Part shown: positions 1-12,198 of the stretch, in pieces
Layout: every line of letters starts with the position of its first letter
Numbering within the stretch: position 1 is the first letter of the stretch
NCBI GenBank assembly: GCA_903878275.1
Contig: CAIRHC010000007.1
Location: 8,727-72,726 of the forward strand
Reading direction: 5' to 3'
DNA length: 64,000 nucleotides
DNA from: Candidatus Vogelbacteria bacterium
Lineage (GTDB): Bacteria; Patescibacteriota; Minisyncoccia; Phycocordibacterales; XYD1-FULL-46-19
Made by a program: the position numbers and the translations under genes
The notes under the pieces: generated by a model
The model's input: the letters and a program-made list of their open reading frames with translations, nothing else
Databases searched by the model: none
Told to the model about the DNA's origin: nothing

Positions 1-1389
1 TCTGGTAATTCGGCTAATTTGACTGCTTTTTCTTCTAAATATTTTTTAGTGTTTAGTTCTGGGTTCTCAAGAACCTCTTCCATTAAGGCATTTAGAATAA
101 AACCAACTTTTGGCCCTGGTGTCTCACGTGTAACATCCATTATTTTTTTGCCGTCGATTTTCATCATTTTTACTGAAGTCGGCGCCCTCAATGCCTCTTC
201 GATCATTGATTCGTATTTTCTCAAGCGATAAGGCTCTTCTTTTGGACGACCCATTCCGATGCGGTCACAGAAGCGTAAATTCATCAAATCCCAAATGTAT
301 TCTGGCCCGACGTTTACGATAATCCGACGAACGGCTGATAAGGTGATTTTGTCCGGATCAGAGAAGAACATATGGTTTCTGACCAGTTTTACAACAATCT
401 CGGTTAGTTTCACGGGAAACTTTAACCTAGACATTATCTCCTTTACCATTCTTTCCCCTACTACGTCGTGACCGTAAAAGGTGTATTGCTTACCTTTTAC
501 TGATTCGCGTCTGGTTTTCATCTTACCAACGTCGTGTAACAAAGCCGAAAGTCTCACGTGAAACGGGTATTCCTTATCAGCTGAATACTGCAAAGCTCTC
601 AAGGAATGTTCCCAAACGTCATAAATATGCTCCCCTTTCTGCTCGACACCAATCCCCGTTTCTATCTCTGGTAAAATATACTGCAATAGCCCACATTTGT
701 GGCATAAAATAAGACCTTCTTGTGGATTTGGCGACATAATTATCTTAGAAAATTCATCTCGTATTCTTTCTATCGAAGTATTTTTTAATAACTTGGAGTT
801 TTTAAAGATACTTTTCTTGGTGTCGATGTTGCACGTGAAACCAAGCTCGCTGGCGAAACGAATGGCTCTAATAAGCCGTAAACTATCTTCTGTGAAGCGA
901 AGATCGGCTTCCCCTACCGTTTGTACTACTTTGTCCTTTATGTCCTTTATACCGCCGTATAAATCGATTATCTCTTCAGTGAAAGGATTATAAGCTAAAG
1001 CATTGATCGTAAAATCTCGCCGAGCCAAATCTTCTTCCAAACTTTTGCCAAATTTTACCTCATCCGGGTGTCTGTTGTCTGAATAACCAGATTCTAATCT
1101 GAAGGGGGTAATTTCTACAGCTTTTAATTTGGAATCCTCTATCTCTTCGTTGATTACGGTGACAGTGCCAAATTGATTTTCATAAACAGTTTTAGAATAT
1201 AGCGACACGATTTGTTCCGGCGTGGCATTTGTCGTTATATCCCAATCTTTTGGTTCCCGGCCGATTAAGCCGTCTCGGACACAACCGCCCACTAAAAAAG
1301 CCTCAAAACCGTTATTTTTCAAGGTTTTGGCGTTGTCCAAGATAATTTCTGGAATTTTTAATTTAATTTTCGGGTTATTTTCAGGCATT
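1..1389 (-). CDS. cca: CCA-adding enzyme / tRNA nucleotidyltransferase (head domain + HD domain); C-terminus runs off the window start
   Basis: Own translation of minus strand from ATG (revcomp of 1387-1389): MPENNPKIKLKIPEIILDNAKTLKNNGFEAFLVGGCVRDGLIGREPKDWD (GGxVRD head motif); HD motif LLHDVGK from revcomp around 520-545; no stop before position 1, which is why it is absent from the ORF track; plus-strand ORFs 19-993 are antisense to it. Confidence 0.8.
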
Positions 1390-1448
1390 ATTTTAATTTT
1401 AACTAAAATTTTGATATTTATCCAATTTTATGGTACTTTTTATCTATT

Positions 1449-1520
1449 GCCCTTGTAGTTTAATGGATAAAACGACGGTCTTCGGAACCGTTGATGTGGG
1501 TTCGATTCCTGCCAGGGGCA
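1449..1520 (+). tRNA. tRNA-Arg (anticodon TCG), 72 nt, no encoded CCA
   Basis: Hand-folded cloverleaf: acceptor GCCCTTG/CAGGGGC (one G-T pair), anticodon stem ACGGT/ACCGT, loop CTTCGGA, T-loop TTCGATT. Confidence 0.8.
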
Positions 1521-1695
1521 CACGAGTGAAACGAAGTGGGTCATTGGCAGGAATCGAACAGGAGTGGGGTCGGGAGAACATTTTGTTCTCCAGTGGAGGA
1601 AGGCAGGGAGTTCGTCTTCTGACGAACGACCGTCGGAAAACCGTGGGTTTCCGAGGAGTGAGATTTCCTCCATGGGCACACGGTAAAAAATAATT
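1521..1695 (+). repeat. tRNA-trailer structured module, copy A (diverged)
   Basis: GGCAGGAATCGAAC (1546-1559) is a perfect inverted copy of the tRNA-Arg T-arm GTTCGATTCCTGCC (1500-1513). A GC-rich hairpin GGGAGAAC-ATTTT-GTTCTCC follows, then further hairpins (GTTCGTC/GACGAAC, TCGGAAA/TTTCCGA), and the module ends with a degenerate direct repeat of the tRNA-Arg 3' end (ATTTCCTCCATGGGCACACGG, 1663-1683, versus ATTCCTGCCAGGGGCACACGA). Confidence 0.6.
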
Positions 1696-1696
1696 A

Positions 1697-1782
1697 GGGC
1701 ACGTGGCGGAATCTGGTATACGCGTACGTCTCAGAAGCGTATGGAGTGATCCTTGGGAGTTCGAGTCTCCCCGTGCCCACCA
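1697..1782 (+). tRNA. tRNA-Leu (anticodon CAG), long variable arm, CCA encoded
   Basis: Acceptor GGGCACG/CGTGCCC, anticodon stem TACGT/GCGTA, loop CTCAGAA, 13-nt variable arm, T-arm GGGAG-TTCGAGT-CTCCC, ends ACCA at 1782. Confidence 0.8.
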
Positions 1783-1960
1783 AATAATACTAGCTAGTGT
1801 TATTTGGTGGGCACGAGAAAGGCAACTGCTTGCCTTTTGTGGGAGACTCGAACAACGGAACGATATTTTTTCAGTAGAAAAAATTAGTGAGTTGGTGCCT
1901 AGACCAAGGTGAGCGACGGCGAACCTTGAGTCGAAGGAGAGTCGCTCCCCCGTGCCCACA
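1783..1960 (+). repeat. tRNA-trailer structured module, Leu copy
   Basis: TTATTTGGTGGGCACG (1800-1815) is a perfect inverted copy of CGTGCCCACCAAATAA (1772-1787). GGGAGACTCGAAC (1841-1853) is an inverted copy of the T-arm GTTCGAGTCTCCC (1759-1771). An inner hairpin AAAGGCAA-CTGC-TTGCCTTT is present, and the tRNA 3' end is repeated directly as GCTCCCCCGTGCCCACA (1944-1960). Confidence 0.6.
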
Positions 1961-2036
1961 CTTACCTATTTGAATTTTTGTAATAATTTGGTAAAATAGT
2001 TTTTGTTGGATTAGGTAAATAAATGAGCGGGTATGG

Positions 2037-2107
2037 TTTAGTGGTAGAACACGACCTTGCCAAGGTTGAGACGGGAGTCCGATTCTCCCTACCCGCACAA
2101 AAGACTT
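2037..2107 (+). tRNA. tRNA-Gly (anticodon GCC)
   Basis: Acceptor GCGGGTA/TACCCGC, anticodon stem CGACC/GGTTG with loop TTGCCAA, T-arm GGGAG-TCCGATT-CTCCC; no trailer module, followed by a plain terminator. Confidence 0.8.
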
Positions 2108-2134
2108 GTTTCATAGAATCAAGAAAAGAAAAAA

Positions 2135-2160
2135 GGACGGCGTTTGCCGTCCTTTTTTTG
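2135..2160 (+). terminator. Rho-independent terminator after the tRNA cluster
   Basis: GGACGGCG-TTT-GCCGTCC hairpin followed by a T7 run. Confidence 0.7.
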
Positions 2161-2419
2161 GGTCGTTTAGTCACTTTTAAACCTTAAAAAAACCAAAAAC
2201 TGTGGATAAACCTGTGTCCAATGGGGATAAGAGACGGCTTTTAACTTCTTTGGTTGTCCTTTGATTCGTCCGTTGCCTTTTAAAATATGGCTTAAAATAA
2301 CGTTATTCTGTAATTTTGACCAGAAATAAGGGTTTTTCACCCCGAAAGTGTTTCTTAAGAAACACTTTCGGGGCATTTTTCAGAAAAATGTCTAAAAATA
2401 GACAAAGAATGTCCGGTTT

Positions 2420-2893
2420 GTGCTAAAATTAAATTGTTTAAATATCTCAAAAATAATGTTTGGTAATTCTTCAAAAACAGACAATCGAACCGAAAAACAA
2501 ATTGTCGGTGCGAAAGGGGAGCAACTCGCTTGCGATTACTTAATAAAAAATGGTTATCGAATACTAAAACGAAATTATTGGAAACCGCAGGGCGAGATCG
2601 ATATCGTGGCTCAAAAGGGGAGCATTCTTTATTTTATCGAAGTAAAAACCGTTTCTTCGACACCGGAATTTGTCAAAATGTTGTCTGAAAATAGGGGAAT
2701 GTTTGATAATTATCAGCCTGAAGACAACATTCACCCTTGGAAAATAAAAAGATTATCGAGAGTTATTGAAATTTTCCTGTCCGAAAACCACATTGATGAC
2801 GATCAGGACTGGCAAGTCGATGCCATTTGCGTGTACTTAGAAAAGGGGAGCGACAAAATGCTGAAAATCGAGTATCTGGAAGATATTATGTAA
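2420..2893 (+). CDS. YraN-family (UPF0102) predicted PD-(D/E)xK endonuclease with C-terminal extension; true start probably the ATG at 2456
   Basis: GEQLACDYLIKNGYRILKRNYWKPQGEIDIVAQKGSILYFIEVKT matches the YraN signature (GE.LA..YL...GY.IL.RN.R...GEIDLIA......VFVEVK). Confidence 0.75.
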   Translation: MLKLNCLNISKIMFGNSSKTDNRTEKQIVGAKGEQLACDYLIKNGYRILKRNYWKPQGEIDIVAQKGSILYFIEVKTVSSTPEFVKMLSENRGMFDNYQPEDNIHPWKIKRLSRVIEIFLSENHIDDDQDWQVDAICVYLEKGSDKMLKIEYLEDIM

Positions 2894-2947
2894 AAAATTA
2901 AAGGGGCAGGATACTTTTTGTATCTGCCCCTAAACCTTAAACCATTT

Positions 2948-4102
2948 TTACTCTCCTTTCTGCCGGAAGTTCCAGCAACCTTCGGTGTCGACGAAACCGT
3001 CGCGACACAGTTGTTCATTTGATAACTCCTTGGCACGACGACCAAGGCATGAGTTGCACTTGCCTTCGGCGAAGTTGGCACACTTTGTGCCACACTTTCC
3101 ACCATAACACCGAGAACGGACAATCCGCATCTCGGTCGACTCCCAAGCTTGGTCGAGAGTCTTGGTTTTTACACTTCCTAATTTCACCTCCTCTGCCCCA
3201 ATGCAAGGGCGGACATCACCGTACTGTGATATGTACATATGGTGCATGTATCTATCGCAGACGGTACCGACATAGCTCTGGGATAACTCCCAGCTTTGAC
3301 CGAACTCATCTTTGTCGATTTGTTGGAGCTCAAGAAGCGCCACTTTGATTCCCTCGCCGGGGATTTTCAAGTGACAACTTTGAGCACGTCCCACATCAAG
3401 GACGGAGTCGCAGTCAAAGATAATATTATTCTTGCGACAGAAGCGCAAAACTTCTGCCACGTCATTGACGTTTGACGGACCATCAGGCTCGTCCGACGCC
3501 ATTATTGAAGTCACGAGTGCCAACCGGCTTTCGCGACCAAATTTTCTGGCAATCTCATCCTCTGGGGAATTGAAGCCAGCGTTAATCAGTGCTTGAAGGG
3601 TGGCGTTTCTTTTTGCGCCGTAACCTTCAATGTTGCGTCCGTGAGCTGGGTCGCTCACGAACTTGTCTTGCTCTTCCGGGTCGAGTGTGTTGCCCTTGAG
3701 CATTAGCTCGACCGGCAGTTTTTTTAACTTGGCGATAAGTTCCTCTGTCAGGAACTCGCCGGTTGTGAATACCGTGACAAACATTCCCAACTCGGTTGCC
3801 CGAGTCAAGAACCACATTGTGAGCTCGAGGTTCCGTTCAATGAACGGTTCCCCAGCCCCGGGGATACCAAGAGAATCGACACCGATACTCTCGGCTTCGG
3901 CCAGAAGGCGATTGTAGTCGTCTTTTGACAACAAATCGTCTGGCCTGTTTGGCTTTCCTCCTCTGGCGTAGCAGTATGTGCACGCCAAGTTGCAGAAGCC
4001 GGGCAACTCAACCCACAGACTCTGTAGTCTGCCGGTATTTGCACGGCGGAGGCCGTGCTGCACTGCCGTATTCTTCATTTTTTTACTCCTTTTAATTTTC
4101 AA
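2948..4102 (-). CDS. Radical SAM protein with C-terminal Cys-rich SPASM/twitch-like domain
   Basis: CNLACTYCYA (CxxxCxxC) near the N-terminus; C-terminal cysteine cluster CYGGKCGTKCANFAEGKCNSCLG...C...C; RBS AAAGGAG 8 nt before the ATG. Confidence 0.8.
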   Translation of the reverse strand: MKIKRSKKMKNTAVQHGLRRANTGRLQSLWVELPGFCNLACTYCYARGGKPNRPDDLLSKDDYNRLLAEAESIGVDSLGIPGAGEPFIERNLELTMWFLTRATELGMFVTVFTTGEFLTEELIAKLKKLPVELMLKGNTLDPEEQDKFVSDPAHGRNIEGYGAKRNATLQALINAGFNSPEDEIARKFGRESRLALVTSIMASDEPDGPSNVNDVAEVLRFCRKNNIIFDCDSVLDVGRAQSCHLKIPGEGIKVALLELQQIDKDEFGQSWELSQSYVGTVCDRYMHHMYISQYGDVRPCIGAEEVKLGSVKTKTLDQAWESTEMRIVRSRCYGGKCGTKCANFAEGKCNSCLGRRAKELSNEQLCRDGFVDTEGCWNFRQKGE

Positions 4103-4118
4103 CGTTCTTCTGGCGCTA

Positions 4119-4147
4119 AGTATACCAGATTATTGTAAATATGTCAA
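4119..4147 (-). promoter_or_regulatory. Consensus sigma70-type promoter for the radical SAM gene (TTGACA-17-TATACT on minus strand)
   Basis: Revcomp of 4119-4147 reads TTGACATATTTACAATAATCTGGTATACT, a perfect -35, 17-bp spacer and near-perfect -10, 20 nt upstream of the RBS; lies in a divergent intergenic region shared with the TrmB-like gene. Confidence 0.6.
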
Positions 4148-4248
4148 TATAATTTCGTCACTTTTACATAAAATTATCATATAATATATCTTTATTTTGC
4201 TTAATAAAAATGACTTGACTATGTAAAATAAGAGTATAAAATATAATA

Positions 4249-5046
4249 GTGACGACATATGTTCGTCAAAATAAAACTATGGATATTCAATTTATTATCG
4301 AAAAATTGGGACTAGGGGAGAAGCAAGCTGGGGTTTACATGGCTCTTCTTCAGATGGGATCAGGCAACATTAAACAAATTGCCAAAAATTCTGATCTCAA
4401 GCGGACGACTGTCTATAGTGTGTTAGATAATTTGATTCAAAAAGGATTTGTGATCTTGGTTAAAAAAGGTGCTCATCGTGTGTATTTTGCCGAAGATCCC
4501 AAAAAACTTTCTATTCTCTATGATAACGAAATATTAAAAATAAAAGAACGTCAGAAAGCCATAGCTGAAGTTTTACCAGAACTCGGTTCGCTTTATAATG
4601 CCAACGCGGCTAAACCCGCCATTCGTTTTTATGAAGGGTTGGAGGCTTTGAAGCAAGTTTTTAATGAAACTCTGGAGTTAAAGAAAGGGGAAGAAATTTT
4701 AGTCTATTCTTCAGCTGAATCAATCCATACTTATTTAGGTGATGTATATGTCAAGAATTATCTAGCCCAAAGAAAACAAAAGGGGATAATTCAAAGAGCT
4801 ATTGCTGAAGACTCTCTCTCTGCTCAAGAGCATCTTAAACACGACAAAGAAGAATTACGCCAGACTAGACTGGTAAGTAAGGAATTTTTTCCGTTTTCTA
4901 ATGAGATAAATATTTTTCGTAATAAAATGTTGATTATTTCTTATAAAGATTTCTTTGGGGTTGTTATCGAGAGTGCTGAAATTGCTAAAACCCAAAAAGC
5001 GATTTTTGAATTGGCATGGATTGGGTCTAAAAATATCAAAAAGTAA
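4249..5046 (+). CDS. TrmB-family HTH transcriptional regulator (start possibly the ATG at 4279, MDIQF)
   Basis: N-terminal winged helix LGLGEKQAGVYMALLQMGSGNIKQIAKNSDLKRTTVYSVLDNLIQKGFV, typical TrmB N-domain; 265 aa. Confidence 0.65.
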   Translation: MTTYVRQNKTMDIQFIIEKLGLGEKQAGVYMALLQMGSGNIKQIAKNSDLKRTTVYSVLDNLIQKGFVILVKKGAHRVYFAEDPKKLSILYDNEILKIKERQKAIAEVLPELGSLYNANAAKPAIRFYEGLEALKQVFNETLELKKGEEILVYSSAESIHTYLGDVYVKNYLAQRKQKGIIQRAIAEDSLSAQEHLKHDKEELRQTRLVSKEFFPFSNEINIFRNKMLIISYKDFFGVVIESAEIAKTQKAIFELAWIGSKNIKK

Positions 5047-5177
5047 TTTAGCTAGAGTTTTTGAAATATTCCTCCATAAAATTGACTTTTGTCTAAAATA
5101 TTGTATGATTGTAAAAGATTGGTCGGCTGTCGATCAATGAAACGAAGTTCTTTGTTTAATCTAGTTGGAGAAAAAAG

Positions 5178-5453
5178 ATGACCGAGCATAAAGTGAATGA
5201 AGAAGTGGAGTTGCGCATTTTGCGCAAATTATTCAAGAGACATATTTCGCAAGGTCGATTGATGTCGGCCAACGAGTTTAATCGCCATGTCACTAATCTG
5301 GCGAAAGAGCTCGGCGAGAATACAGATGATCTCCGTCAGTTGGCGGAAAAATTTCTGACCGAGATTGTTGGGGATATGCTCACACAATCTCTGAAAAAGT
5401 CAGTAACATCACAAATTCCCGAAGTCGAGCATTTTGGGAGTTCAGTGAAATAA
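5178..5453 (+). CDS. Hypothetical protein (91 aa)
   Basis: ORF with GGAGAAAAAAGATG RBS; no recognisable motif. Confidence 0.45.
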   Translation: MTEHKVNEEVELRILRKLFKRHISQGRLMSANEFNRHVTNLAKELGENTDDLRQLAEKFLTEIVGDMLTQSLKKSVTSQIPEVEHFGSSVK

Positions 5454-5669
5454 AGACGGCAAGGTCGAGCCCGCCCCGGCTCTCAAAGGGTAATTGAACC
5501 TCCTCGCTTGGCGAGCAAGGTTCAGAATAAGAACCCTCCTCCTGTCTTTGTTTTTTTGTAAGGCTAGGCGATTTGTCGCTTAGCCTTTTAATTTGGCTGG
5601 TTTTTCTTAGGTTTTTTAATATTTGAATTTAGATTGTTTTTAGGCTATAATTTTAGAGTTATTAAATAT

Positions 5670-5741
5670 CGGGGTGTAGTGCAACGGCTAGCACGAGTCC
5701 TTTGGGAGGATTTAATCCGAGTTCGAATCTCGGCACCCCGA
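5670..5741 (+). tRNA. tRNA-Pro (anticodon TGG), no encoded CCA
   Basis: Acceptor CGGGGTG/CACCCCG, anticodon stem AGTCC/GGATT with loop TTTGGGA, T-arm CCGAG-TTCGAAT-CTCGG. Confidence 0.8.
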
Positions 5742-5922
5742 CAAAAAACAAAAGAGCTGGAAATTTCCAGTTCTTTGTTTTTTGTCTCGAGATTCGAACC
5801 AGAGGTGGGGTCGGGAGGACTGGGTGTCCTCCCGTGGAGGAAATTATTCAAAACCGAGGGGTTTGAAAGCGCAATTCGCTTTAGCGAATGAGCAGTGAGT
5901 GTTCTCGGCACCCCGACAAAAT
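5742..5922 (+). repeat. tRNA-trailer structured module, copy B (canonical)
   Basis: In order: a terminator-like hairpin (AAAAAACAAAAGAGCTGGAAATTTCCAGTTCTTTGTTTTTT); TCGAGATTCGAAC, an inverted T-arm copy; the GC hairpin GGGAGGAC-TGGGT-GTCCTCCC; a 55-nt core TTATTCAAAACCGAGGGGTTTGAAAGCGCAATTCGCTTTAGCGAATGAGCAGTGAG (5844-5899); and a direct repeat of the tRNA-Pro 3' end, CTCGGCACCCCGACAAAA (5904-5922). Confidence 0.7.
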
Positions 5923-5978
5923 TTTTATATTCTCAACTTGTGTATTGACAAAGTAATTACATTGTCTATACTAGAATT

Positions 5979-6227
5979 ATGTCTACTTTAAGTATTAGGA
6001 TTGAAGATAAAACCAAAGCTGAAGCAAGTAAAACTCTGGCTCGTCTTGGGCTTGATATGTCTAGCGCGATCAAACTTTTTCTTTATCAGGTAGTAAAGGA
6101 AGACGGTCTGCCTTTTACTCCGACCAATAATCTGGCGATAATTAAAGCTCGCTTCGATACTCAAGTGCTTGAAGCCAAGAAAAACCGTGGTTTCAAGACG
6201 GCAAAAGAGGCGCTTGATGATTTATAA
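5979..6227 (+). CDS. dinJ: DinJ/RelB-family antitoxin
   Basis: MSTLSIRIEDKTKAEASKTLARLGLDMSSAIKLFLYQVVKEDGLPFTP matches the DinJ ribbon-helix-helix N-terminus; immediately followed by the yafQ-like toxin. Confidence 0.8.
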   Translation: MSTLSIRIEDKTKAEASKTLARLGLDMSSAIKLFLYQVVKEDGLPFTPTNNLAIIKARFDTQVLEAKKNRGFKTAKEALDDL

Positions 6228-6230
6228 AAT

Positions 6231-6515
6231 ATGTACATTATCAAGCGGACTAAAGATTTTGAAAGGTCTTTTAAAAAACTTAAGCAGGCGGGACTTTCAA
6301 AAAATAAAAGAAATATCTTAGAATCTGTAATTGATATAATAGCTTTGGGTCAAAAACCGAGCGAGAAATATAAAGACCATCAATTAAAAGGGGAATTGAG
6401 GTTTTTTCGTGAATGTCATATTTTTAATGATCTTTTGGTGATTTACAAAATCGAAAAAGACGAGTTGATCCTAGTTTTGGTTGACATTGGTAGTCATGCT
6501 CAATTATTTGGATAA
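6231..6515 (+). CDS. yafQ: YafQ-family mRNA interferase toxin (RelE/ParE superfamily)
   Basis: DHQLKGELRFFRECHIFNDLLVIYKIEKDELILVLVDIGSHAQLFG matches the YafQ C-terminal signature (H.LTG.W.GYRDCHI.PDWLLIY......L.LVRTGSHSELF). Confidence 0.85.
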   Translation: MYIIKRTKDFERSFKKLKQAGLSKNKRNILESVIDIIALGQKPSEKYKDHQLKGELRFFRECHIFNDLLVIYKIEKDELILVLVDIGSHAQLFG

Positions 6516-6563
6516 AACAGACGCATTTTGAATTAAGGTATTTTAAGTGGTAGGATAAAATAT

Positions 6564-6755
6564 CGGAGTGTAGTGTAACGGTAACATCCACGACACGCCC
6601 GCCTACCTTTTTATCGGGGCATAGTGTAACGGTAACATTTACGATTCGGGTTCGTAAGACTCAGGGTTCGAATCCCTGTGCCCCGACAAGAGAAGTGAGA
6701 AAAGGTGGGCAGGTGAAGGTTCGTGGGACTCAGGGTTCGAATCCCGGCACTCCGA
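6564..6755 (+). pseudogene. Disrupted or split tRNA-Pro-like gene: 5' half 6564-6590, 3' half about 6716-6755, interrupted by an insertion that carries a complete tRNA-Pro(CGG)
   Basis: The 5' half CGGAGTG-TA-GTGTAACGGTAACAT-CCACG matches the tRNA-Pro(CGG) 5' half through the D-arm. The 3' half CGTGG-GACT-CAGGG-TTCGAAT-CCCGG-CACTCCG-A carries the complementary acceptor strand and complementary anticodon-stem strands (CCACG/CGTGG). The T-stem has one mismatch. Confidence 0.45.
6615..6686 (+). tRNA. tRNA-Pro (anticodon CGG), no encoded CCA, nested between the halves of the split tRNA
   Basis: Acceptor CGGGGCA/TGCCCCG, anticodon stem TACGA/TCGTA with loop TTCGGGT, T-arm CAGGG-TTCGAAT-CCCTG. Confidence 0.75.
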
Positions 6756-6903
6756 CAAAACTGAAAAGTTTTTCGGAGTGCAGGGATTCGAACGGGAAGG
6801 GGTAGGGAAACGGGAGTTTCCCTTGGCGGAGTTATTCAAACCGAGGGGTTTGAAAGCGCAATTCGCTTTAGCGAATGAGCAGTGAGATTCCCGGCACTCC
6901 GAC
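6756..6903 (+). repeat. tRNA-trailer structured module, copy C
   Basis: TCGGAGTGCAGGGATTCGAAC is an inverted copy of the preceding 3' end GGTTCGAATCCCGGCACTCCGA. The GC hairpin is GGGAAAC-GGGA-GTTTCCC, which covaries with copies A and B. The 55-nt core (6832-6886) is near-identical to copy B. The module ends with a direct repeat ATTCCCGGCACTCCGACA (6886-6903). Confidence 0.7.
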
Positions 6904-6936
6904 ACAACGAAAAATTAATAATTTAATTAAACAGTT

Positions 6937-7449
6937 ATGATCGAACAAAATTCAAGTGTGGAAAAAATTGAAAATGTGAGGAAATTTCTAATTAGGTCGA
7001 ATGAGGCTGGTTATGCTGGTGGGGAAGATAAGAAATGGATTAAGGAGGCGGATAGCTCGACCACGATCGCTTATGAAGATGGTGATTGGAAATTTAATGA
7101 TAACTTCTTCGGTGGTGAGCCGTATGGTGGGCGGGAAGTGATTTTTAAAGAGGGAAAGCCGGAATGGATGATGGTTTATTACGGTTTGATTAGCGATAAG
7201 GACTTGGATAAAAACAAGGTTTATGGTTTTTTGCGCTCGGCTCTGAAATTGGCGCCAGCCGAAATGCCTTTGCGTGGCCCAGATCTTTTTGTGCAGGAAA
7301 TTGATGGTCAAAAGTGGGTTTATGAAAATAAGGTTGGTGGCAAGATGGAAAATTTTTCTGGTAAAGAAACTATTAGTATCGATGGCCGGGAGATTTTTTA
7401 TACGGATTATTTCGGTGGCTTGGTGGATGTGGATAGGGAGGCTATTTAA
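6937..7449 (+). CDS. Hypothetical protein (170 aa)
   Basis: Clean ORF after the tRNA region, followed by a bidirectional terminator; no motif recognised. Confidence 0.5.
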   Translation: MIEQNSSVEKIENVRKFLIRSNEAGYAGGEDKKWIKEADSSTTIAYEDGDWKFNDNFFGGEPYGGREVIFKEGKPEWMMVYYGLISDKDLDKNKVYGFLRSALKLAPAEMPLRGPDLFVQEIDGQKWVYENKVGGKMENFSGKETISIDGREIFYTDYFGGLVDVDREAI

Positions 7450-7484
7450 TCTTAAATTACGAAATTAGGTTTCCTATGCTTTTC

Positions 7485-7552
7485 TGTCATTCCCGCGTAG
7501 GCGGGAATCTAGGTTTTGTCGAGTTGGTCTAGATTCCCGGCGGGAATGACAA
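7485..7552. repeat. Inverted pair of REP-like palindromic units (TGTCATTCCCGC-N5-GCGGGAATCTAG family)
   Basis: GTCATTCCCGCGTAGGCGGGAATCTAG (7486-7512) and CTAGATTCCCGGCGGGAATGACA (7529-7551) face each other with a 17-nt spacer; each unit has an internal palindrome; a third copy lies at 63655-63684. Confidence 0.6.
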
Positions 7553-7605
7553 TCGTTAAGGTTATTAATTTGGGGGACTAGAACGCCAGGATTAAAATCT
7601 TAAAC

Positions 7606-7650
7606 TAAAACCGTCCCGACTCAGCTAGCTGAGTCGGGACGGTTTTTTTA
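7606..7650. terminator. Bidirectional rho-independent terminator between convergent genes
   Basis: ACCGTCCCGACTCAGC-TAGC-GCTGAGTCGGGACGGT perfect 16-bp stem flanked by A and T runs. Confidence 0.8.
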
Positions 7651-7670
7651 ACCTTTCGCACGCTGGCGAG

Positions 7671-7943
7671 TTATTTTTTACCCCAGCTCTTTTTGTGAGC
7701 GTAGAAGTAGTAGATCATGTCTAAAATACCCATAGTGTTGACTAGGAGTAAAACGACAAACCAAACTTTGGCACCGTTTCTGGCGGCGCGCCATAAGGCG
7801 AGACCTTTCCAGACGATTGTCCAAACTATTATGACCGCTATTAATGTGGCTGCACCTATTACAGCCGCAGCTGCTGAGATGCCCCAGACCATGTCTGGCA
7901 GTTTGTCTGCCATGAAGGCTGGATTATTTATTAATTTATCCAT
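7671..7943 (-). CDS. Small two-TM membrane protein (DUF-type, common in CPR)
   Basis: Two hydrophobic helices (AAAAVIGAATLIAVIIVWTIVW, VWFVVLLLVNTMGILDMIYY) and a WRAARNGAKVW motif. Confidence 0.5.
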   Translation of the reverse strand: MDKLINNPAFMADKLPDMVWGISAAAAVIGAATLIAVIIVWTIVWKGLALWRAARNGAKVWFVVLLLVNTMGILDMIYYFYAHKKSWGKK

Positions 7944-8098
7944 ATGCCATTTATTATAGCAAAATTTTTTGTAAAAAAATTATTAAAAAGAAATAGCTGT
8001 TGATAACTTTTTTTACCTGGTTAAATAAATTTGTTTTACAAATCTAGCTTTGCTATTTAACTGGGTGGATGTAAAGTATAATCAGGTTTGGCTTAAAA

Positions 8099-8629
8099 AT
8101 GGAATTTAATTATCAAATCAAAAAAAGTAGAATCGCTCGGCGTCTGAAAATTACGATTCATCATGATGGGCGAGTGGTGGTCACTTCACCTTTTTACTTA
8201 CCGGCCATTTTGGCGCGAAAATTTGTCGATAAAAAAAGTGATTGGATAAGAAAGAAGTTGGAATTTTTCGCGCGGAAAAAATTGATTGCGCCGGAAATTA
8301 AGGTGGGGAGTTTTCGAAAAAATAAAGAAGCCGCGCGAGCACTGGTGCTCGCGCGGGTCGCTCACTTTAATCAATTTTATAATTTCCGTTTTCAAAAAAT
8401 TTTTATCAAAAATCAAAAAACGGTGTGGGGGAGTTGTTCGCGAAAAGGCAATTTAAATTTTAATTACAAAATTTTATTTTTACCAAAAAATTTACAAGAC
8501 TATATTATTGTTCACGAACTTTGTCATCTTGGTGAAATGAATCACTCGTCAAAATTTTGGGCACTGGTGGAAAAAACTTTACCAGATTATTTGGTTGTGC
8601 GAAAAAATTTAAAAAGAAGGATTTTATAA
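8099..8629 (+). CDS. YgjP-like (DUF45/WLM) zinc metallohydrolase
   Basis: HEXXH in IIVHELCHLGEMNHSSKFWALVEKTLPDY matches the YgjP family motif (HEL.HL.e.nHs..FW.LV...lPdy). Confidence 0.8.
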   Translation: MEFNYQIKKSRIARRLKITIHHDGRVVVTSPFYLPAILARKFVDKKSDWIRKKLEFFARKKLIAPEIKVGSFRKNKEAARALVLARVAHFNQFYNFRFQKIFIKNQKTVWGSCSRKGNLNFNYKILFLPKNLQDYIIVHELCHLGEMNHSSKFWALVEKTLPDYLVVRKNLKRRIL

Positions 8630-8692
8630 ATTTTGAACAAAAAACATTTTAGTGGGATAATGAGATTATTAAAAGTTTAACTAAATAATTTT

Positions 8693-9097
8693 ATGATTGG
8701 ATATGTAAATAATATTGAAGAACTAACTTTGGCAAATGAAAATTTTCGCCAAGTTTTATACACGGGCAAACATTGCCAATTGGTTTTAATGAGTTTAAAA
8801 CCAAGTGAAGATATTGGAATGGAGGTGCACGAAAATGTTGATCAGTTTTTTCGGATTGAAAAAGGGGAAGGCAGGGTAATTATTGATGATGTCGAACATT
8901 TGATCAAAGATGGTTCGGCGATTATTATTCCCGCCGGAGCAAATCACAATGTGATAAATTCTTCAGCTGTTGATTCGTTGAAACTTTACACAATTTATTC
9001 GCCAGCCAATCATCAAAAAGATATTGTTCATAAAACAAAAGCTGATGCGGAAGCCGATGAAGGGGTCGAACATTTTGATGGCGTAACTTCAGAATAA
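8693..9097 (+). CDS. Cupin-domain protein
   Basis: Cupin motifs G-x-EVHENVDQ ... IPAGANHNVIN. Confidence 0.65.
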   Translation: MIGYVNNIEELTLANENFRQVLYTGKHCQLVLMSLKPSEDIGMEVHENVDQFFRIEKGEGRVIIDDVEHLIKDGSAIIIPAGANHNVINSSAVDSLKLYTIYSPANHQKDIVHKTKADAEADEGVEHFDGVTSE

Positions 9098-9102
9098 TTT
9101 GT

Positions 9103-9513
9103 ATGTATTTTGTCGCTCAAAATTGGCAGGCTTGGTATGAAGCTTTGATCAAGCCGACTTGGACACCGAGTGCTGGAACTATCGGATTGATTTGGACGAT
9201 TCTTTACCCGATTATTTTAGGGAGTTATATTTACACTATTTATTTGTGGCGTAAAGGCAAGTTGCCGATTAAAGTTCCGCTAATTTTTTCCGTAAACGTT
9301 TTAGCTAATTTAATTTTTACGCCAATTCAATTTGGTTTGGAAAATCTCTGGCTCGCTAGTCTGGATATTTTGGTGGTTTGGACAACGATCGTTTTGCTGA
9401 TTTTTAGTGCTTGGCGTCACAATAAATTTTTAGCGCTAGTCCAGATCCCGTATCTTACATGGGTTTCAATTGCGACTGTTTTACAACTGACCGTCAACGC
9501 TTGGAATTTTTAG
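9103..9513 (+). CDS. TspO/MBR-family tryptophan-rich sensory protein
   Basis: IKPTWTPSAGTIGLIWTILYPIIL matches the TspO N-terminal signature (KPSWTPP.WVF.PVWT.LY); five predicted TM helices, Trp-rich. Confidence 0.75.
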   Translation: MYFVAQNWQAWYEALIKPTWTPSAGTIGLIWTILYPIILGSYIYTIYLWRKGKLPIKVPLIFSVNVLANLIFTPIQFGLENLWLASLDILVVWTTIVLLIFSAWRHNKFLALVQIPYLTWVSIATVLQLTVNAWNF

Positions 9514-9859
9514 AAATCATTTTAGCCAAGTAAAACAAGGGTTTCACACCGGCTAAGGCAAAAATTGGCAGCGGAAATCTGACGTTTCACAGACAAGAGA
9601 ATTGAAAAAGGTGGGTGCTTAATTACTAAAATAGTTTAAAATCAAAAATATCTAGCTGTTTAAATCTAGAAGTCCAAGGTTCGTCGGTGGCAAGATTTAA
9701 TATTTTACTCCTGTTTTGTTTCGGCTGGAAGTTTGGTTTGACTTTGATATTACTTTTTGTTTTAATGTTTGTGTGTAGTAAGTTTCCTAAATTATTTTGG
9801 GTCAAAAATAATTTAGGAAGGTCAGCTTACTCAATATTAGAATTGTTAATTTGTGTTAA

Positions 9860-10240
9860 ATGTCTAGCAAGTTATATGTCGGGGGTTTGCCATACAAAAC
9901 AAATGATGGCGAAATGCAACAGTTGTTTGCTCAAGCAGGAAGTGTGACTTCCTCACGAGTTATTATTGATAAAATGACCGGTCGTTCACGAGGTTTTGGT
10001 TTTATTGAAATGGCGTCTGATGAAGATGCGCAAAAAGCGATTTCAATGTTTAACGGTCAAGAATATGAAGGACGAAAATTGATCGTCAACGAAGCTCGTC
10101 CGATGGAAGATCGTCCTCCACGTCGTGAAGGTGGTTACAATAATAATCGCGGTGGCAATGGCGGAGGCTATGGCAGTAATGGCAGTGGTTATGGTGGCAA
10201 CAATAGTTATGGCGGAAACGGCGGAGGCAATCGCTACTAA
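9860..10240 (+). CDS. RRM-type RNA-binding protein with Gly/Asn-rich C-terminal tail
   Basis: RNP-2 LYVGGL and RNP-1 RGFGFIEM motifs; C-terminal GGNGGGYGSNGSGYGG low-complexity tail; long structured 5' UTR (9540-9859) that includes a CCTAAATTATTTTGGGTCAAAAATAATTTAGG hairpin. Confidence 0.85.
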   Translation: MSSKLYVGGLPYKTNDGEMQQLFAQAGSVTSSRVIIDKMTGRSRGFGFIEMASDEDAQKAISMFNGQEYEGRKLIVNEARPMEDRPPRREGGYNNNRGGNGGGYGSNGSGYGGNNSYGGNGGGNRY

Positions 10241-10336
10241 TTTTATTTCTTGAATTTTTAATTAAATAAAACAAAAAATCTGGCAATCTTTGTCAGATTT
10301 TTTGTTTCTAAAATTTTATCGTGGTAAAATAAAACC

Positions 10337-10558
10337 ATGTTTTATGGTTTAGCAATTTTAGCTCTCGCCTGGTTGGTTCAACTTCTTTCTGTGTGGAAAG
10401 GAAGACACACTTTGCAACCATGGTTTCTTCGCTTATCGGTGGTCGGGTTTGTGCTGATCGTTCTGGAAACTTTTGATAAAAATAATTTGCCACACTCGTG
10501 GCCGGCGCTCGCTTCGCTCGCGATTATTTTGATTTTAACCTGGCGGTTTCGGAAATAG
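10337..10558 (+). CDS. Hypothetical small membrane protein (73 aa)
   Basis: Two hydrophobic helices; followed by a terminator hairpin at 10573-10598. Confidence 0.35.
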   Translation: MFYGLAILALAWLVQLLSVWKGRHTLQPWFLRLSVVGFVLIVLETFDKNNLPHSWPALASLAIILILTWRFRK

Positions 10559-10572
10559 GATCGCAAAATAAA

Positions 10573-10598
10573 AACCGGAAAAATCCGGTTTTTATTTT
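10573..10598. terminator. Bidirectional terminator (ACCGGA-AAAAT-CCGGT + T-run)
   Basis: The hairpin is flanked by A and T runs on both sides; it serves the plus-strand gene and the minus-strand tRNA-Trp. Confidence 0.6.
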
Positions 10599-10599
10599 G

Positions 10600-10670
10600 T
10601 GCGGGATGGGAGAGTCGAACTCCCCACCACAGTTTGGAAAACTGTTATTTTACCGATAAACTAATCCCGC
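10600..10670 (-). tRNA. tRNA-Trp (anticodon CCA)
   Basis: Revcomp gives GCGGGAT-TA-GTTTATCGGTAAAAT-A-ACAGT-TTTCCAA-ACTGT-GGTG-GGGAG-TTCGACT-CTCCC-ATCCCGC-A; acceptor and all stems pair. Confidence 0.8.
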
Positions 10671-10812
10671 CAAAATTCGCTGGAGCGAATTTTGGCGGGC
10701 AAATCCACCTCATTCGCATCTCAACAATCTTCAAAATCTTAGCAAAAAAAGTGACGAATGCCAAATCGATCAAAAATTTGAATACCATAAAAAATGGTGG
10801 TAGGATGGAAAA

Positions 10813-11643
10813 ATGAAAAAGTATTTTTATCTAAATGGCAAAATTTTACCGACGGCAAAGCCCGCTATTTTTATCAACGATCTTGGTTTGTTGCGTGGCT
10901 ATGGTGTCTTCGATTTTTTAAAAACTTACAATGGTAAACTTTTTGAGTTGTCCGAACATTACAAGCGATTTGTTAATTCGGCGAAAATGCTTGATTTGAA
11001 GGTGCCTGTGTCTGAAAAACAATTGGCCGAAATTTTATCTAAATTATTGAAAAAAAATAATTCTCGCGACGCTAGTTTCCGACTTTTGCTGACGCCTGGT
11101 CCGAGCGACAACGGTTTAAATTTTGGGACAGATAAAACCACGTTTGCTGTCTTGGTAGAGGATGTTTACGATTTACCGGCAAAACTTTTTACTCACGGCG
11201 GTAAATTGATGACTTGTGATTATCAACGAATGTTGCCGGAATCAAAGAATCTAAATTACATTCAAGCGGTCAAGCTGCAGAAAGAAAAAAACCGCAAAGG
11301 AGCGATTGAAATTCTTTATAAAAAAGAGGGTTTTATTACCGAGTGTACGACTAGTAATTTTTTCATTTTTAAAAAAGGTGTGCTGATCACCCCGAAAGAT
11401 AATATTCTCGGTGGAATTACGCGCAAAAAAGTTTTGGCTTTGGCAAAACATTTTTATCCGATTGAGGTTCGTGATTTGACCGAGAAAGAAATTTTTACTG
11501 CTGACGAAGCTTTTTTGACCGCGACCAATAAAAAAGTTTTACCAATTGTAATGATTGACGGGAAAAAGATTGGCAGTGGTAAAGTGGGTGAAGAGACCAA
11601 GAAGCTGATGAATTTGTTTGCTGATTATACTAATAATTATTAA
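10813..11643 (+). CDS. Class IV PLP-dependent aminotransferase (branched-chain / D-amino-acid aminotransferase family)
   Basis: LRGYGVFDFLK ... TADEAFLTATNKKVLPIVMIDGKKIG resembles the BCAT/DAAT fold-type IV signature (E.F.TGT...V.PV..ID). Confidence 0.8.
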   Translation: MKKYFYLNGKILPTAKPAIFINDLGLLRGYGVFDFLKTYNGKLFELSEHYKRFVNSAKMLDLKVPVSEKQLAEILSKLLKKNNSRDASFRLLLTPGPSDNGLNFGTDKTTFAVLVEDVYDLPAKLFTHGGKLMTCDYQRMLPESKNLNYIQAVKLQKEKNRKGAIEILYKKEGFITECTTSNFFIFKKGVLITPKDNILGGITRKKVLALAKHFYPIEVRDLTEKEIFTADEAFLTATNKKVLPIVMIDGKKIGSGKVGEETKKLMNLFADYTNNY

Positions 11644-11647
11644 AACT

Positions 11648-11690
11648 AAAAATACCCCGCCGGCTACAAGCCGGCGGGGTATTTTTTATC
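11648..11690. terminator. Bidirectional terminator between the aminotransferase and hup
   Basis: ATACCCCGCCGGCT-ACAA-GCCGGCGGGGTAT 14-bp stem with flanking A and T runs. Confidence 0.8.
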
Positions 11691-11692
11691 AC

Positions 11693-11965
11693 TTATTTAA
11701 CCCCATCTTTTAAAGCTTTTCCCGCTTTAAATTTTGGTACGCGCATCGCTGGGACGTGGACCGTCTCGCCTGTGCGTGGGTTTCGCGCTTCACGCGCTTT
11801 ACGGACATTGGCAGTAAAGATACCAAGACCAGAAATTGAGACTTCGTCACCTTTTTTCAATGTAGAGATGATTGAATCGATGATGAGTTCCATTACTTTT
11901 TCGGCACCAGCCTTTGTCCCTCCGATATTTTCATGAATCAATTCGATAAGAGCTTGCTTATTCAT
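11693..11965 (-). CDS. hup: DNA-binding protein HU
   Basis: MNKQALIELIHENIGGTKAGAEKVMELIIDSI...GFGTFEV-like core ...RNPRTGETVHVPAMRVPKFKAGKALKD; classic HU arm motif. Confidence 0.9.
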   Translation of the reverse strand: MNKQALIELIHENIGGTKAGAEKVMELIIDSIISTLKKGDEVSISGLGIFTANVRKAREARNPRTGETVHVPAMRVPKFKAGKALKDGVK

Positions 11966-12198
11966 AGTTATAATAAATTTTATTTATTAATAAAAGCGAC
12001 CTGACTATTTGACCTGGGGCTATTATATTACAACGCTATTTTAAGCGCAACCAAATCGCAACTATTGACGAATATAATTTTATCTAGCGTAATCAATAAC
12101 GCGAGTTTCACGGATGATAGGGATTTTGGCAGGATATTATTGTCACAGCGAACACATCGCTTTGTGGCAGTGTTATTTTTATGTATAATTAAAAGAAC

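Follow-up and report, generated by a model that had tools for sequence, protein, structure and literature searches.

Noncoding cassettes between copies of tRNA 3' ends, a family polymorphic at orthologous tRNA sites in Patescibacteria

In a 64-kb stretch of DNA from Candidatus Vogelbacteria bacterium (GenBank assembly GCA_903878275.1, contig CAIRHC010000007.1, positions 8,727 to 72,726; the window in what follows), several tRNA genes are followed by short modules that carry part of the host tRNA in both orientations. We show that these modules are a family of noncoding cassettes restricted to the candidate phyla radiation (CPR; Patescibacteria), each with a copy of the tRNA stretch from T-loop to gene end on either side, and that they are polymorphic at orthologous sites of related genomes. 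The loci with which the window was compared are labeled L001 and so on.

RESULTS

Anatomy of the modules

Read 5' to 3' on the tRNA strand, the layout is tRNA, spacer hairpin (often terminator-like), inverted copy, core, and direct copy. The inverted copy is the complement of the trailer, the acceptor 3' strand, the T-stem 3' strand, and the T-loop, and it always ends in TCGAAC (complement of G53). The direct copy runs from the T-loop at about nucleotide 57 through the T-stem 3' strand, the acceptor 3' strand, and the discriminator to 0 to 5 nucleotides (nt) beyond. Between them the core, 60 to 110 nt long, folds on the tRNA-sense strand into two to four hairpins around a purine-rich junction, which in the core types that we call I and II consists of GGGGUC / GUGGNGGA / GAGNAGUGAG. 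The complete order in these two types is NGGAAA, GGGGUC, hairpin S2, GUGGNGGA, an optional hairpin, hairpin S3 (..AACC GNGG GGUU..), an optional hairpin S4, and GAGNAGUGAG. Every core is bounded on both sides, in inverted orientation, by near-universal T-loop sequence (GGAWTCGAAC ... GTKMGAWTCC). The inverted copy pairs with the distal direct copy and encloses the core in a helix that reproduces the T-stem of the host and, in a minority of copies, its acceptor stem as well. The T-loop of the direct copy reads GTTCGAT or GTGAGAT, the latter making tandem G-A pairs in this closing helix. The features of the window, with the evidence for each in parentheses, are as follows.

1449..1521, plus strand: tRNA-Arg(TCG), host of module A (ARAGORN; Rfam tRNA, 66.9 bits).
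1536..1559, plus strand: module A, inverted copy that covers the T-loop of tRNA-Arg and the 3' strands of its T-stem and acceptor stem, with the end ...TCGAAC (repeat pair).
1560..1661, plus strand: module A core, type I (covariance-model match at 1542-1672, 90.1 bits; fold prediction).
1662..1682, plus strand: module A, direct repeat of the 3' end of tRNA-Arg in degenerate form, GATTTCCTCCATGGGCACACG (12/16 identity to the tRNA end).
1697..1782, plus strand: tRNA-Leu(CAG), which encodes CCA, host of the Leu module (ARAGORN, Rfam).
1794..1853, plus strand: Leu module left part (repeat pairs; recurrence of hairpin H0 in other loci).
1854..1944, plus strand: Leu module core, type III, unrelated to A, B, and C (5.1 bits only with covariance model R1; alignments).
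1945..1960, plus strand: Leu module, direct repeat covering the 3' strands of the T-stem and acceptor stem of tRNA-Leu and its discriminator (sequence).
2027..2098, plus strand: tRNA-Gly(GCC), without a module, an internal negative control (ARAGORN; covariance model).
5670..5742, plus strand: tRNA-Pro(TGG), host of module B (ARAGORN, Rfam).
5743..5785, plus strand: module B spacer, an A/T-rich terminator-like palindrome (repeat pairs; terminator-like on both strands).
5786..5799, plus strand: module B inverted T-stem and T-loop copy, CTCGAGATTCGAAC, its acceptor part deleted (sequence).
5800..5900, plus strand: module B core, 5' half type-I-like and 3' half type II (covariance-model match at 5782-5885, 55.1 bits).
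5901..5921, plus strand: module B, direct repeat made up of the 3' end of tRNA-Pro(TGG) and 5 nt of its trailer (repeat family).
6564..6593, plus strand: 5' half of a disrupted resident tRNA-Pro(CGG), called X (repeat family; comparison with L119).
6594..6717, plus strand: 124-nt insert in the anticodon loop of X (ARAGORN, sequence, comparison with L119).
6718..6756, plus strand: 3' half of X, host of module C (repeat family).
6769..6793, plus strand: module C, inverted copy extending over the T-loop, T-stem, and acceptor 3' strand of X and its trailer (repeat pair).
6794..6885, plus strand: module C core, type II, a four-way junction with S2, S3, and S4 (covariance-model match at 6776-6872, 46 bits).
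6886..6903, plus strand: module C direct repeat of the X 3' end (repeat family and pair; comparison with L119).

The modules extend over 1536-1682 (A), 1794-1960 (Leu), 5786-5921 (B), and 6769-6903 (C). An earlier inspection of the DNA by a model, which we refer to as the sequence-only reading, had placed tRNAs Arg(TCG), Leu(CAG), Gly(GCC), Pro(TGG), and Pro(CGG) here, and ARAGORN and Rfam find them at the same positions. It had also described an inverted copy of the host tRNA 3' part. A repeat finder recovered it for Arg (1500-1523 with 1536-1559, 24 nt, 83% complementary), for Leu (1772-1793 with 1794-1815, 22 nt, 95%, and a second pair, 1759-1771 with 1841-1853, 13 nt, 100%), and for the split Pro (6735-6759 with 6769-6793, 25 nt, 92%), while the whole acceptor strand is included only in C and Leu; this part is degenerate in A and deleted in B, a deletion also found in the L119 module. 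The direct repeats of the tRNA end came out of the same search (5900-5928 and 6886-6914), and the core said to be common to B and C is a stretch of 49 nt that is 100% identical (5851-5899 = 6838-6886), a match reached by 0 of 100 shuffles.

In module A the core starts with GGGGTC, hairpin S2 (GGGAGAAC/GTTCTCC), GTGGAGGAAGG, and an extra hairpin (GTTCGTC/GACGAAC), and continues with hairpin S3 (CGGAAAACC/GGTTTCCG) and GAGTGAG. The left part of the Leu module comprises the inverted trailer and acceptor strand (1794-1815), hairpin H0 (AAAGGCAACTGCTTGCCTTT, 1816-1840), and the inverted T-stem and T-loop (GGGAGACTCGAAC, 1841-1853); H0 is conserved and was found again in L004, L057, L087, and L127. 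The Leu core, ordered as an AT hairpin, GGTGCCTAGA, a hairpin, and TCGAAGGAGAGTC, aligns with the modules of L087 Leu-CAG and Val-TAC and of L127 Pro-CGG.

The four modules had been taken as one family, which holds in part. Modules A, B, and C match the covariance model significantly (90, 55, and 46 bits) and share a homologous core, but the Leu module scores only 5.1 bits (E = 9.4), so A, B, and C are one family, with which the Leu module has the tRNA-derived flanks alone in common. The model matches nothing else in the window, in agreement with the absence of a module behind tRNA-Gly-GCC.

A side feature of module A is that its degenerate direct repeat, UUUCCUCCAU (1662-1672), is now complementary to the conserved junction strand GUGGAGGAAG (1596-1606); in the predicted minimum-energy fold these two segments pair and replace the usual closing helix.

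Distribution across Patescibacteria

The family was collected with a degenerate pattern derived from A, B, and C (TCGAAC..GGGGTNGGGA..TGGNGGA), a seed that biases it towards types I and II. Scanning species-representative genomes gave matches in at least 120 genomes, and the family counts that follow rest on the matches listed. Among these, about 100 loci belong to Patescibacteria (Saccharibacteria, many Parcubacteria/Paceibacterota lineages, Berkelbacteria, Moranbacteria, and Pacebacteria). The covariance model, R1, was annotated by hand, as RNAalifold on a MAFFT alignment recovered only S2; its effective sequence number is low and its E values are rough (short calibration). R1 matched 110 times in the window and 99 CPR loci and four more times, significantly, in L119 and the metagenome loci, for a total of 114. 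None of the 20 non-CPR pattern hits gave a significant R1 match, so we consider these hits to be due to chance.

The association with tRNA genes is strict. A same-strand tRNA or transfer-messenger RNA (tmRNA) ends less than 200 nt upstream of 94 of the 114 copies; six others lie at the edge of a locus and two in tandem behind another module. The remaining 12 have no tRNA by ARAGORN, and most of them show upstream remnants of a tRNA end or another module type. An opposite-strand tRNA partner was found for 0 of the 114. Host tRNAs span 33 different anticodons, and tRNA-His bears a module in three species (L099, L100, and L118). At some loci the modules form tandem arrays. Only 7 of 62 host tRNA genes encode CCA.

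Type I modules also stand 43 to 45 nt behind tmRNA genes, in L112 (973-1075) and L046 (4839-4960). As modules occur there too, the target would be the tRNA-like T-arm and acceptor end, not tRNAs as such.

Seventeen further tRNAs in the fetched loci have their own 3' end directly repeated around other core sequences. Type III, whose members are the Leu module of the window, L087 Leu-CAG and Val-TAC, and L127 Pro-CGG, has its conserved GCAACTGCTTGC hairpin placed after the inverted acceptor strand and ahead of the inverted T-stem strand, and continues with GGYGCCYAGA and TCGRAGGRRARTC. The finding of unrelated cores within the same flanks fits a site-driven mechanism. Further module families, with T-loop-bounded flanks from their own tRNA and different cores, were seen in L004, L009, L057, L100, L104, L110, L099, L087, and L127. 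In several of them a conserved hairpin (...GCAACTGCTTGC...) comes first, separating the inverted strand of the acceptor from that of the T-stem, which gives a tRNA-like arrangement of acceptor, one arm, and expanded T-arm.

Next to the tRNA-Arg cluster, nine module-bearing loci have a gene for the CCA-adding enzyme (PolyA_pol and HD domains). In the window it occupies 1-1388 on the minus strand, and other such loci are L050, L051, L072, L107, L114, L017, and L119.

Covarying fold of the cores

The GC-rich hairpin that had been read as changing on both strands is present in all three related modules (GGGAGAAC/GTTCTCC, GGGAGGAC/GTCCTCCC, and GGGAAAC/GTTTCCC), and its covariation holds over 110 further copies. 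In the model-based alignment of 110 copies, 97.6% of the pairing cells are paired, versus 87.6% after shuffling, and double changes affect 12 of 15 pairs, with 131 cells versus at most 25 in slid controls. The covariation is strong and concerns two core hairpins. Non-Watson-Crick pairs on the tRNA-sense strand are G-U in 19 cases and A-C in 7 (8 versus 0 in hairpin S2 alone), an excess which argues that the tRNA-sense strand is the one that folds. We conclude that the sense-strand fold is under selection; the claim that structure, beyond mere sequence, is conserved is thereby borne out with controls. Predicted stabilities go in the same direction, with the sense strand more stable than the antisense strand in all four window modules and a four-way junction predicted for module C (-60.1 kcal/mol, z = -5.65). 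Conservation of at least 90% is seen in 36 columns, mostly in the junction and across very distant CPR lineages, while the peripheral stems are variable and many of their loops are GNRA-like.

Insertions of 50 to 100 nt were observed within hairpin S2 or S3 in the L126 module behind Pro-TGG (reverse strand) and in L027, L056, L058, and L091, so the core loops tolerate further nested inserts. A GCGAAGC motif turns up repeatedly, within the optional hairpin (GAGCGAAGCGAG), within a 3' insert (GATAGCGAAGCGTC), and in spacers; examples are many type I copies (L013, L032, and L099, among others) and the L127 spacer. The heptamer corresponds to the GNA mini-hairpin, which is very stable.

Match between flanks and host tRNA

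The direct repeat is identical to the tRNA end at 14 or more of 16 positions in 60 of 84 copies. Its right edge lies 0 to 5 nt past the discriminator in 55 of 62 copies and its left edge at nucleotides 57 to 61; the duplication measures 17 to 24 nt and is tied to tRNA structure. The inverted arm is 7 to 27 nt long without gaps (median, 15), and it extends as far as the acceptor end in just 16 of the 84 copies. At the level of positions, the direct copy agrees with the tRNA at 95% in the T-stem and also at 95% in the acceptor, while the inverted copy pairs at 86% of the T-stem and only 52% of the acceptor positions. The closing helix therefore always copies the T-stem, and mimicry of the acceptor is the exception, a continuous helix of acceptor and T-stem being found in C, in Leu, and in the 16 of 84 long-armed copies. 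The minihelix presenting an authentic tRNA 3' terminus, which the sequence-only reading had pictured for each module, is thus not general, with about 52% pairing in the acceptor part of the inverted copy against 86% in the T-stem part.

The flanks are homogenized with the local tRNA. The direct repeat of C (CCCGG) shares with X a derived T-to-G change in the T-stem; the inverted copy of C still reads CAGGG. L127 is an intermediate, with Pro-TGG, a TGG-type inverted T-loop, and a GGG-type direct repeat. A module with its toxin/antitoxin block follows Pro-GGG in L119 but Pro-TGG in the window, and the repeats match the local tRNA in each.

Filled, empty, and exchanged sites in related genomes

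A search for close relatives gave no record for the 170-amino-acid neighbor protein of the window, and the nearest homolog of its radical-SAM protein is 63% identical. With no close relative available by protein search, we relied on the synteny of L119 and on a metagenome scan with the exact 30-nt Pro-TGG 3' end, which provided ten contigs to be compared with the window and L119 at the Pro-TGG site. The loci are species representatives, so every filled/empty pair comes from different species.

The terminal direct repeat had been likened to an att-type or target-site duplication, and the orthologous tRNA loci of relatives do contain empty sites, with the distal repeat abutting the original flank. 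L119 has the same order as the window (cca / Arg / Leu / Gly / YraN ... Pro-TGG ... Pro-CGG). Its gaps are 50 nt between Arg and Leu and 48 nt between Leu and Gly, and its Pro-TGG gene, 100% identical to that of the window, has another gene directly after it; these are therefore empty sites for modules A, Leu, and B. Across the survey, Pro-TGG carries a module in the window, L121, L123, L126, and L127, a stump (spacer and inverted copy only) in L129, and no module in L119, L122, L124, L125, L128, and L130, the gene being identical to that of the window in L119, L122, and L128. The Pro-CGG site is empty in L123 (...CACTCCGACA|ACAGCGC|Pro-GGG), and in L127 it holds a module of type III. The distal repeat of this module is decayed and borders directly on the same ACAGCGC flank, from which we conclude that the distal copy is the original gene end. 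In L119 the same site has a stump of spacer and decayed inverted acceptor. The occupancy of Arg, Leu, and Gly-GCC also differs among the window, L119, L017, and L114, the tRNA-Gly(GCC) orthologs of L017 and L114 bearing a module while that of the window does not.

Cores are exchanged between copies. At Pro-CGG the core is type II in the window and B-like in L126. Modules B and C, identical in the last 49 nt at the 3' side of the core, differ in their 5' halves, with C only three bases apart from the L119 module and B of another subtype. Within a genome, the similarity of cores at different tRNAs often exceeds the 95th percentile of the values between genomes (for example, 89% for His versus Gly-TCC), and the spacer hairpins of such near-identical cores are unrelated. 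The spacer hairpin was accordingly rejected as part of the mobile unit, since it differs between near-identical cores of one genome.

In the tRNA-Pro region, a RelB/YafQ toxin-antitoxin pair lies behind the Pro-TGG module in the window (5743-6903) and behind the Pro-GGG module in L119 (2006-3703). Pro-GGG is missing from the window. The change in gene order suggests a rearrangement through recombination between modules or between paralogous tRNA 3' ends.

Searches for known families and recombinases

The sequence-only reading knew of no described element with this layout, and our searches returned none in Rfam, phage and plasmid collections, IMG/VR, or the literature. Against the Rfam 15 families (cmscan of window positions 1-12000 at E up to 5), only tRNAs pass; the overlaps with module or nested-tRNA DNA are at chance level (tmRNA_permuted, 22 bits with a gathering threshold of 47; isrK, 22.3 with 50; beta_tmRNA, 15.9 with 84). 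No hammerhead, hepatitis delta virus (HDV), or pistol-type cores were seen in the modules by eye. A T-box was rejected, as the N of the conserved UGGNGGA is A, A, and C in A, B, and C, all three discriminators are A, and no Rfam T-box matches. The core pattern had 0 matches in IMG/VR, and the modules had no blastn match in phage and plasmid collections, so phage or plasmid att sites were discarded. Full-text literature searches found no description of such modules; the only related paper that came up deals with group I introns located at position 35/36 of Patescibacteria tRNAs (PMC13011429). Coding potential was dismissed because open reading frames (ORFs) over the modules overlap tRNAs on both strands, and an antisense tRNA-like gene was dismissed because the reverse strand is without D and anticodon arms, has no ARAGORN match, and folds less stably.

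The earlier inspection had noted that a module is far too small to encode an integrase, and none was found among the neighbors of 84 copies or among 40 ORFs of the window. After clustering of 772 neighboring ORFs, no integrase, transposase, or reverse transcriptase was enriched near the 84 copies, and the neighbor clusters are synteny families only (the CCA-adding enzyme gene at nine loci, a small membrane protein, and YraN). There is no tyrosine or serine recombinase among the 40 window ORFs, and the insert itself measures only 130 to 200 nt. An integrase-borne integrative element was thus set aside, the att-like direct repeat with a distal original copy being present and an element-encoded recombinase absent.

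With one exception, the 40 window ORFs are housekeeping genes, including those for RNase Y, ClpP, NusA, EF-G/Tu, and the type IV pilus. The exception is a RAYT-like Y1 (IS200-family) gene at 56673-57368 on the minus strand, between EF-G and EF-Tu (Pfam Y1_Tnp, E = 3e-9), with the protein motifs HFHILV and YIHLNP. The palindrome TCAAACACCGGGTGTTGATA occurs in three copies (55649, 56626, and 57380) around this gene and the upstream ORF, which is a classic arrangement of RAYT and repetitive extragenic palindromes (REP). As a mobilizer of the modules at the loci fetched it was rejected, its flanking palindromes being found in no module and no homolog in the other fetched loci; likewise, the module units are not identical to the RAYT-flanking palindromes, which speaks against a REP/REPIN-RAYT system.

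Two other classes were examined and rejected. Like miniature inverted-repeat transposable elements (MITEs), the modules are multi-copy and noncoding. Their flanking duplication measures 17 to 24 nt and is bound to tRNA structure; the modules have no element-specific terminal inverted repeats, their arms differ by copy and match the local tRNA, and no autonomous partner is nearby. An integron attC trait is present in the strand-specific folded palindrome of conserved structure and variable sequence. The ends, TTCGAAC ... GTTCGAT/GTGAGAT, are T-loop sequence and not RYYYAAC ... GTTRRRY, and no integrase was found among the 40 window ORFs.

A tRNA nested in a tRNA

The 124-nt insert at 6594-6717 contains another tRNA-Pro(CGG) (6615-6687), which is intact and distinct from X, and is bounded by 12-nt inverted ends that match imperfectly, CGCCCGCCTACC/GGTGGGCAGGTG. 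It splits the resident X (6564-6756) in the anticodon loop, where nucleotides 32-35 are lost; across both halves X has one mismatch to the intact Pro-CGG of L119. On the reverse strand of L126 (about 2560-2900, read as reverse complement), this second tRNA is likewise split by a third Pro(CGG) gene, nested three deep. The nested tRNA looks like a tRNA-carrying mini-element inserting into its own homolog. The complementary GC-rich ends of the insert recall the split-tRNA leaders of Nanoarchaeum.

DISCUSSION

A proposed mechanism and its weak points

We tentatively favor a combined reading, to which we give somewhat less than an even chance, in which the modules are nonautonomous T-loop-bounded cassettes that are cotranscribed with the tRNA into a tRNA-capped multihelix RNA and exchanged by recombination at the T-loop. 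The cassette would be a small protein-less insertion in the 3' flank of a Patescibacteria tRNA or tmRNA gene, sitting between two direct copies of the segment from the T-loop (about nucleotide 57) to 0 to 5 nt past the discriminator, the distal copy being the original. Inside tRNA operons, or by read-through, it would be transcribed together with the tRNA, and the transcript would act as a tRNA-capped structured RNA. Host enzymes would carry out recombination or copy-choice at the bounding T-loop sequence, by which cassettes or cores would be gained, lost, and swapped among tRNA genes, and gene conversion would keep the flanking copies matched to the local tRNA. Modules inside tRNA operons with no intervening terminator are those of the window (A and Leu), L017, L024, and L032.

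Several points weigh against this combined reading. A terminator-like hairpin stands between tRNA and module in most loci, so sense transcription may be weak, and scans for promoter and terminator consensus sequences are equivocal. All filled/empty comparisons are between different species, with neither an excision product nor strain-level polymorphism seen, so precise loss by repeat recombination cannot be separated from gain. No mobilizing enzyme was identified. The acceptor part of the direct repeat is 95% identical to the tRNA though lacking a pairing partner, which hints at a constraint outside the model, and the same flanks carry unrelated cores (types III to V). Finally, recombination at the T-loop does not alone account for the first inverted copy at a new tRNA. 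None of the explanations considered here accounts for an inverted copy at a naive tRNA except snap-back or fold-back synthesis, which for most copies has no support, given that their direct repeat goes no further than the gene end.

Somewhat less secure is a more specific proposal, namely, that the modules are an element class specific to Patescibacteria, consisting of protein-less cassettes that use the T-loop as boundary and recombination handle, have the host tRNA 3' half copied both ways, and are expressed as tRNA-capped RNAs processed by the tRNA maturation machinery. Such cassettes would in effect be a mobile "tRNA-scaffold" platform for small RNAs, which we put forward with equal reserve, and they are possibly linked to the nested tRNA-in-tRNA replacements at the same loci.

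Alternative explanations

Among the alternatives, a vertically inherited noncoding RNA family that benefits the host survives best, although we consider it rather unlikely. It assumes ancient tRNA-linked small RNAs (for example, ribonucleoprotein scaffolds) released from tRNA precursors by RNase P/Z-type processing at the tRNA-like helix; presence and absence would then reflect loss by repeat recombination, and within-genome similarity would be concerted evolution, not transposition. The 36 columns conserved to at least 90%, which make the junction invariant across very distant CPR lineages, are what such a family would show, as are the strong covariation, the variable peripheral stems with many GNRA-like loops, the fixed orientation relative to the tRNA, the tRNA-His module of L099, L100, and L118, and the demonstrated gene conversion. 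However, near-identical cores behind 33 anticodons require spread after the tRNAs diverged, and related genomes hold different core families at the same site. Stumps and tandem arrays are also at odds with it, many copies lie behind a terminator-like hairpin, and the acceptor mimic required for tRNA-type processing is degenerate in most copies.

Less likely again is that the modules work as DNA, as miniature integrative cassettes that fold in single-stranded DNA and mimic the T-arm duplex of the tRNA gene. The palindrome (tRNA 3' part, spacer, and inverted copy) and the core hairpins would fold, and a host tyrosine recombinase or HUH enzyme acting in trans would insert the cassette at the T-loop, a mimicry comparable to that of integron attC or of the CTX-phage attP hairpin. 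A direct repeat from T-loop to gene end is found in the att sites of T-loop-sublocation integrases, and tmRNA genes are targeted as well. The order of proximal 3' copy, hairpin, inverted copy, core, and distal original would be that of a folded circle opened at the T-loop arm. Tandem arrays and unrelated cargo cores within the same flanks are consistent with this, strand-specific hairpin covariation is typical of attC too, and the window does contain a Y1 HUH (IS200/RAYT-like) gene. That gene, however, has its own, unrelated flanking palindromes, no recombinase is enriched near the copies, and the phage, plasmid, and IMG/VR collections give no match. Moreover, arms specific to the tRNA would be needed for dozens of tRNAs, and conservation peaks at the internal purine-rich junction, not at the ends.

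A cis-acting switch on tRNA maturation appears improbable. Here the inverted copy would pair either with the 3' half of its own tRNA, giving a misfolded precursor, or with the distal direct copy, and the core would be a ligand- or protein-binding aptamer choosing between the two pairings. Three mutually exclusive segments (tRNA 3' half, complement, and second copy) are indeed arranged as in a classic attenuator, the core forms a junction that the helix of inverted and direct copies closes, and the direct copy stays 95% identical to the tRNA. In most loci, however, the terminator-like hairpin comes ahead of the inverted copy, which usually has no acceptor part; no known aptamer matches, and unrelated cores use the same flanks.

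That the modules are neutral debris without function, left when replication switches templates at the tRNA terminator and T-arm palindrome (by quasipalindrome extension or inverted triplication), is already disfavored and very improbable: the direct-inverted-direct order of the tRNA 3' segment is as expected, the center of the palindrome is a hairpin native in L119, and in a few loci (L001 and L109) the direct repeat continues through a second hairpin copy, but a homologous, covarying core of about 100 nt in about 100 genomes is not accounted for, and 55 of 62 repeats stop within 5 nt of the discriminator instead of extending into another copy of the terminator. A pure inverted triplication was rejected on the same ground, as the direct repeat that it predicts, running into the second terminator copy, occurs in full at just two loci (L001 and L109) and in part at two more (L006 and L040).

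Likeness to known systems and novelty

Integrative elements that target tRNA and tmRNA genes share with the modules the 3' side of the gene, the direct repeat from T-loop to end, the original distal copy, and tandem accretion. The modules differ in their size of 100 to 200 nt, the lack of an integrase, the inverted copy of the target, and the covarying core hairpins; they also accept any isotype and are absent from phage and plasmid collections. With attC integron cassettes and CTX-phage-type IMEX they have in common imperfect palindromes of conserved structure, a strand-specific fold, arrays with cassette exchange, and a cargo without recombinase. Unlike these, they come without an IntI/attI platform, dif site, or R/L box consensus, their palindrome arms copy the neighboring tRNA, and their most conserved part is the internal junction. 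MITEs and REPINs are likewise short, noncoding, multi-copy, and hairpin forming, with copies more alike within a genome, and a RAYT-like Y1 gene lies in the window; the terminal repeats of the modules are nevertheless derived from the target, the duplication is of 17 to 24 nt, the modules are strictly behind tRNAs in one orientation, and the RAYT palindrome is different.

Noncoding RNAs linked to tRNAs (plant tRNA-snoRNA dicistrons, gammaherpesvirus tRNA-miRNA units, and E. coli 3'ETS-leuZ, from a 3' external transcribed spacer) also reside within a tRNA transcription unit and can be released by tRNA-processing enzymes, whereas the helix of the modules is copied from their own host tRNA, they occur behind many tRNAs, and they show insertion/deletion polymorphism. 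Quasipalindrome template-switch mutagenesis and the inverted triplications of origin-dependent inverted-repeat amplification (ODIRA) produce the same direct-inverted-direct order with turn-arounds at hairpins, in contrast to the conserved structured core at the second junction and the fixed short length of the direct repeat seen here.

The modules lack what defines each of these systems, be it a recombinase, element-specific terminal repeats, R/L boxes, a link to RAYT palindromes, or a known RNA model. We found no precedent in our searches for a clamp made of the host tRNA 3' half in both orientations around a core conserved across the radiation, and the modules appear to be a new, widespread class. 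The chances are roughly even that they will later be filed as an extreme variant of site-specific nonautonomous elements.

Implications for Patescibacteria

Patescibacteria have tiny genomes with little noncoding DNA, yet about 100 sampled species-level genomes keep at least one module of 100 to 200 nt; annotation of RNAs and of mobile elements thus lacks a large, conserved feature. If they act as RNAs, they would be among the very few lineage-wide structured noncoding RNAs of the radiation and a natural display of RNA on a tRNA-derived scaffold. If they act as DNA elements, they would represent site-specific insertion at tRNA genes without an element-encoded recombinase. Either way, they explain the apparent partial tRNA duplications and the rearrangements around CPR tRNA clusters, and they are recombination hot spots, as in the tRNA-Pro region, where the gene order differs between the window and L119. 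In both cases they offer a concrete starting point for testing how tRNAs are processed and how genomes change in organisms that resist easy cultivation.

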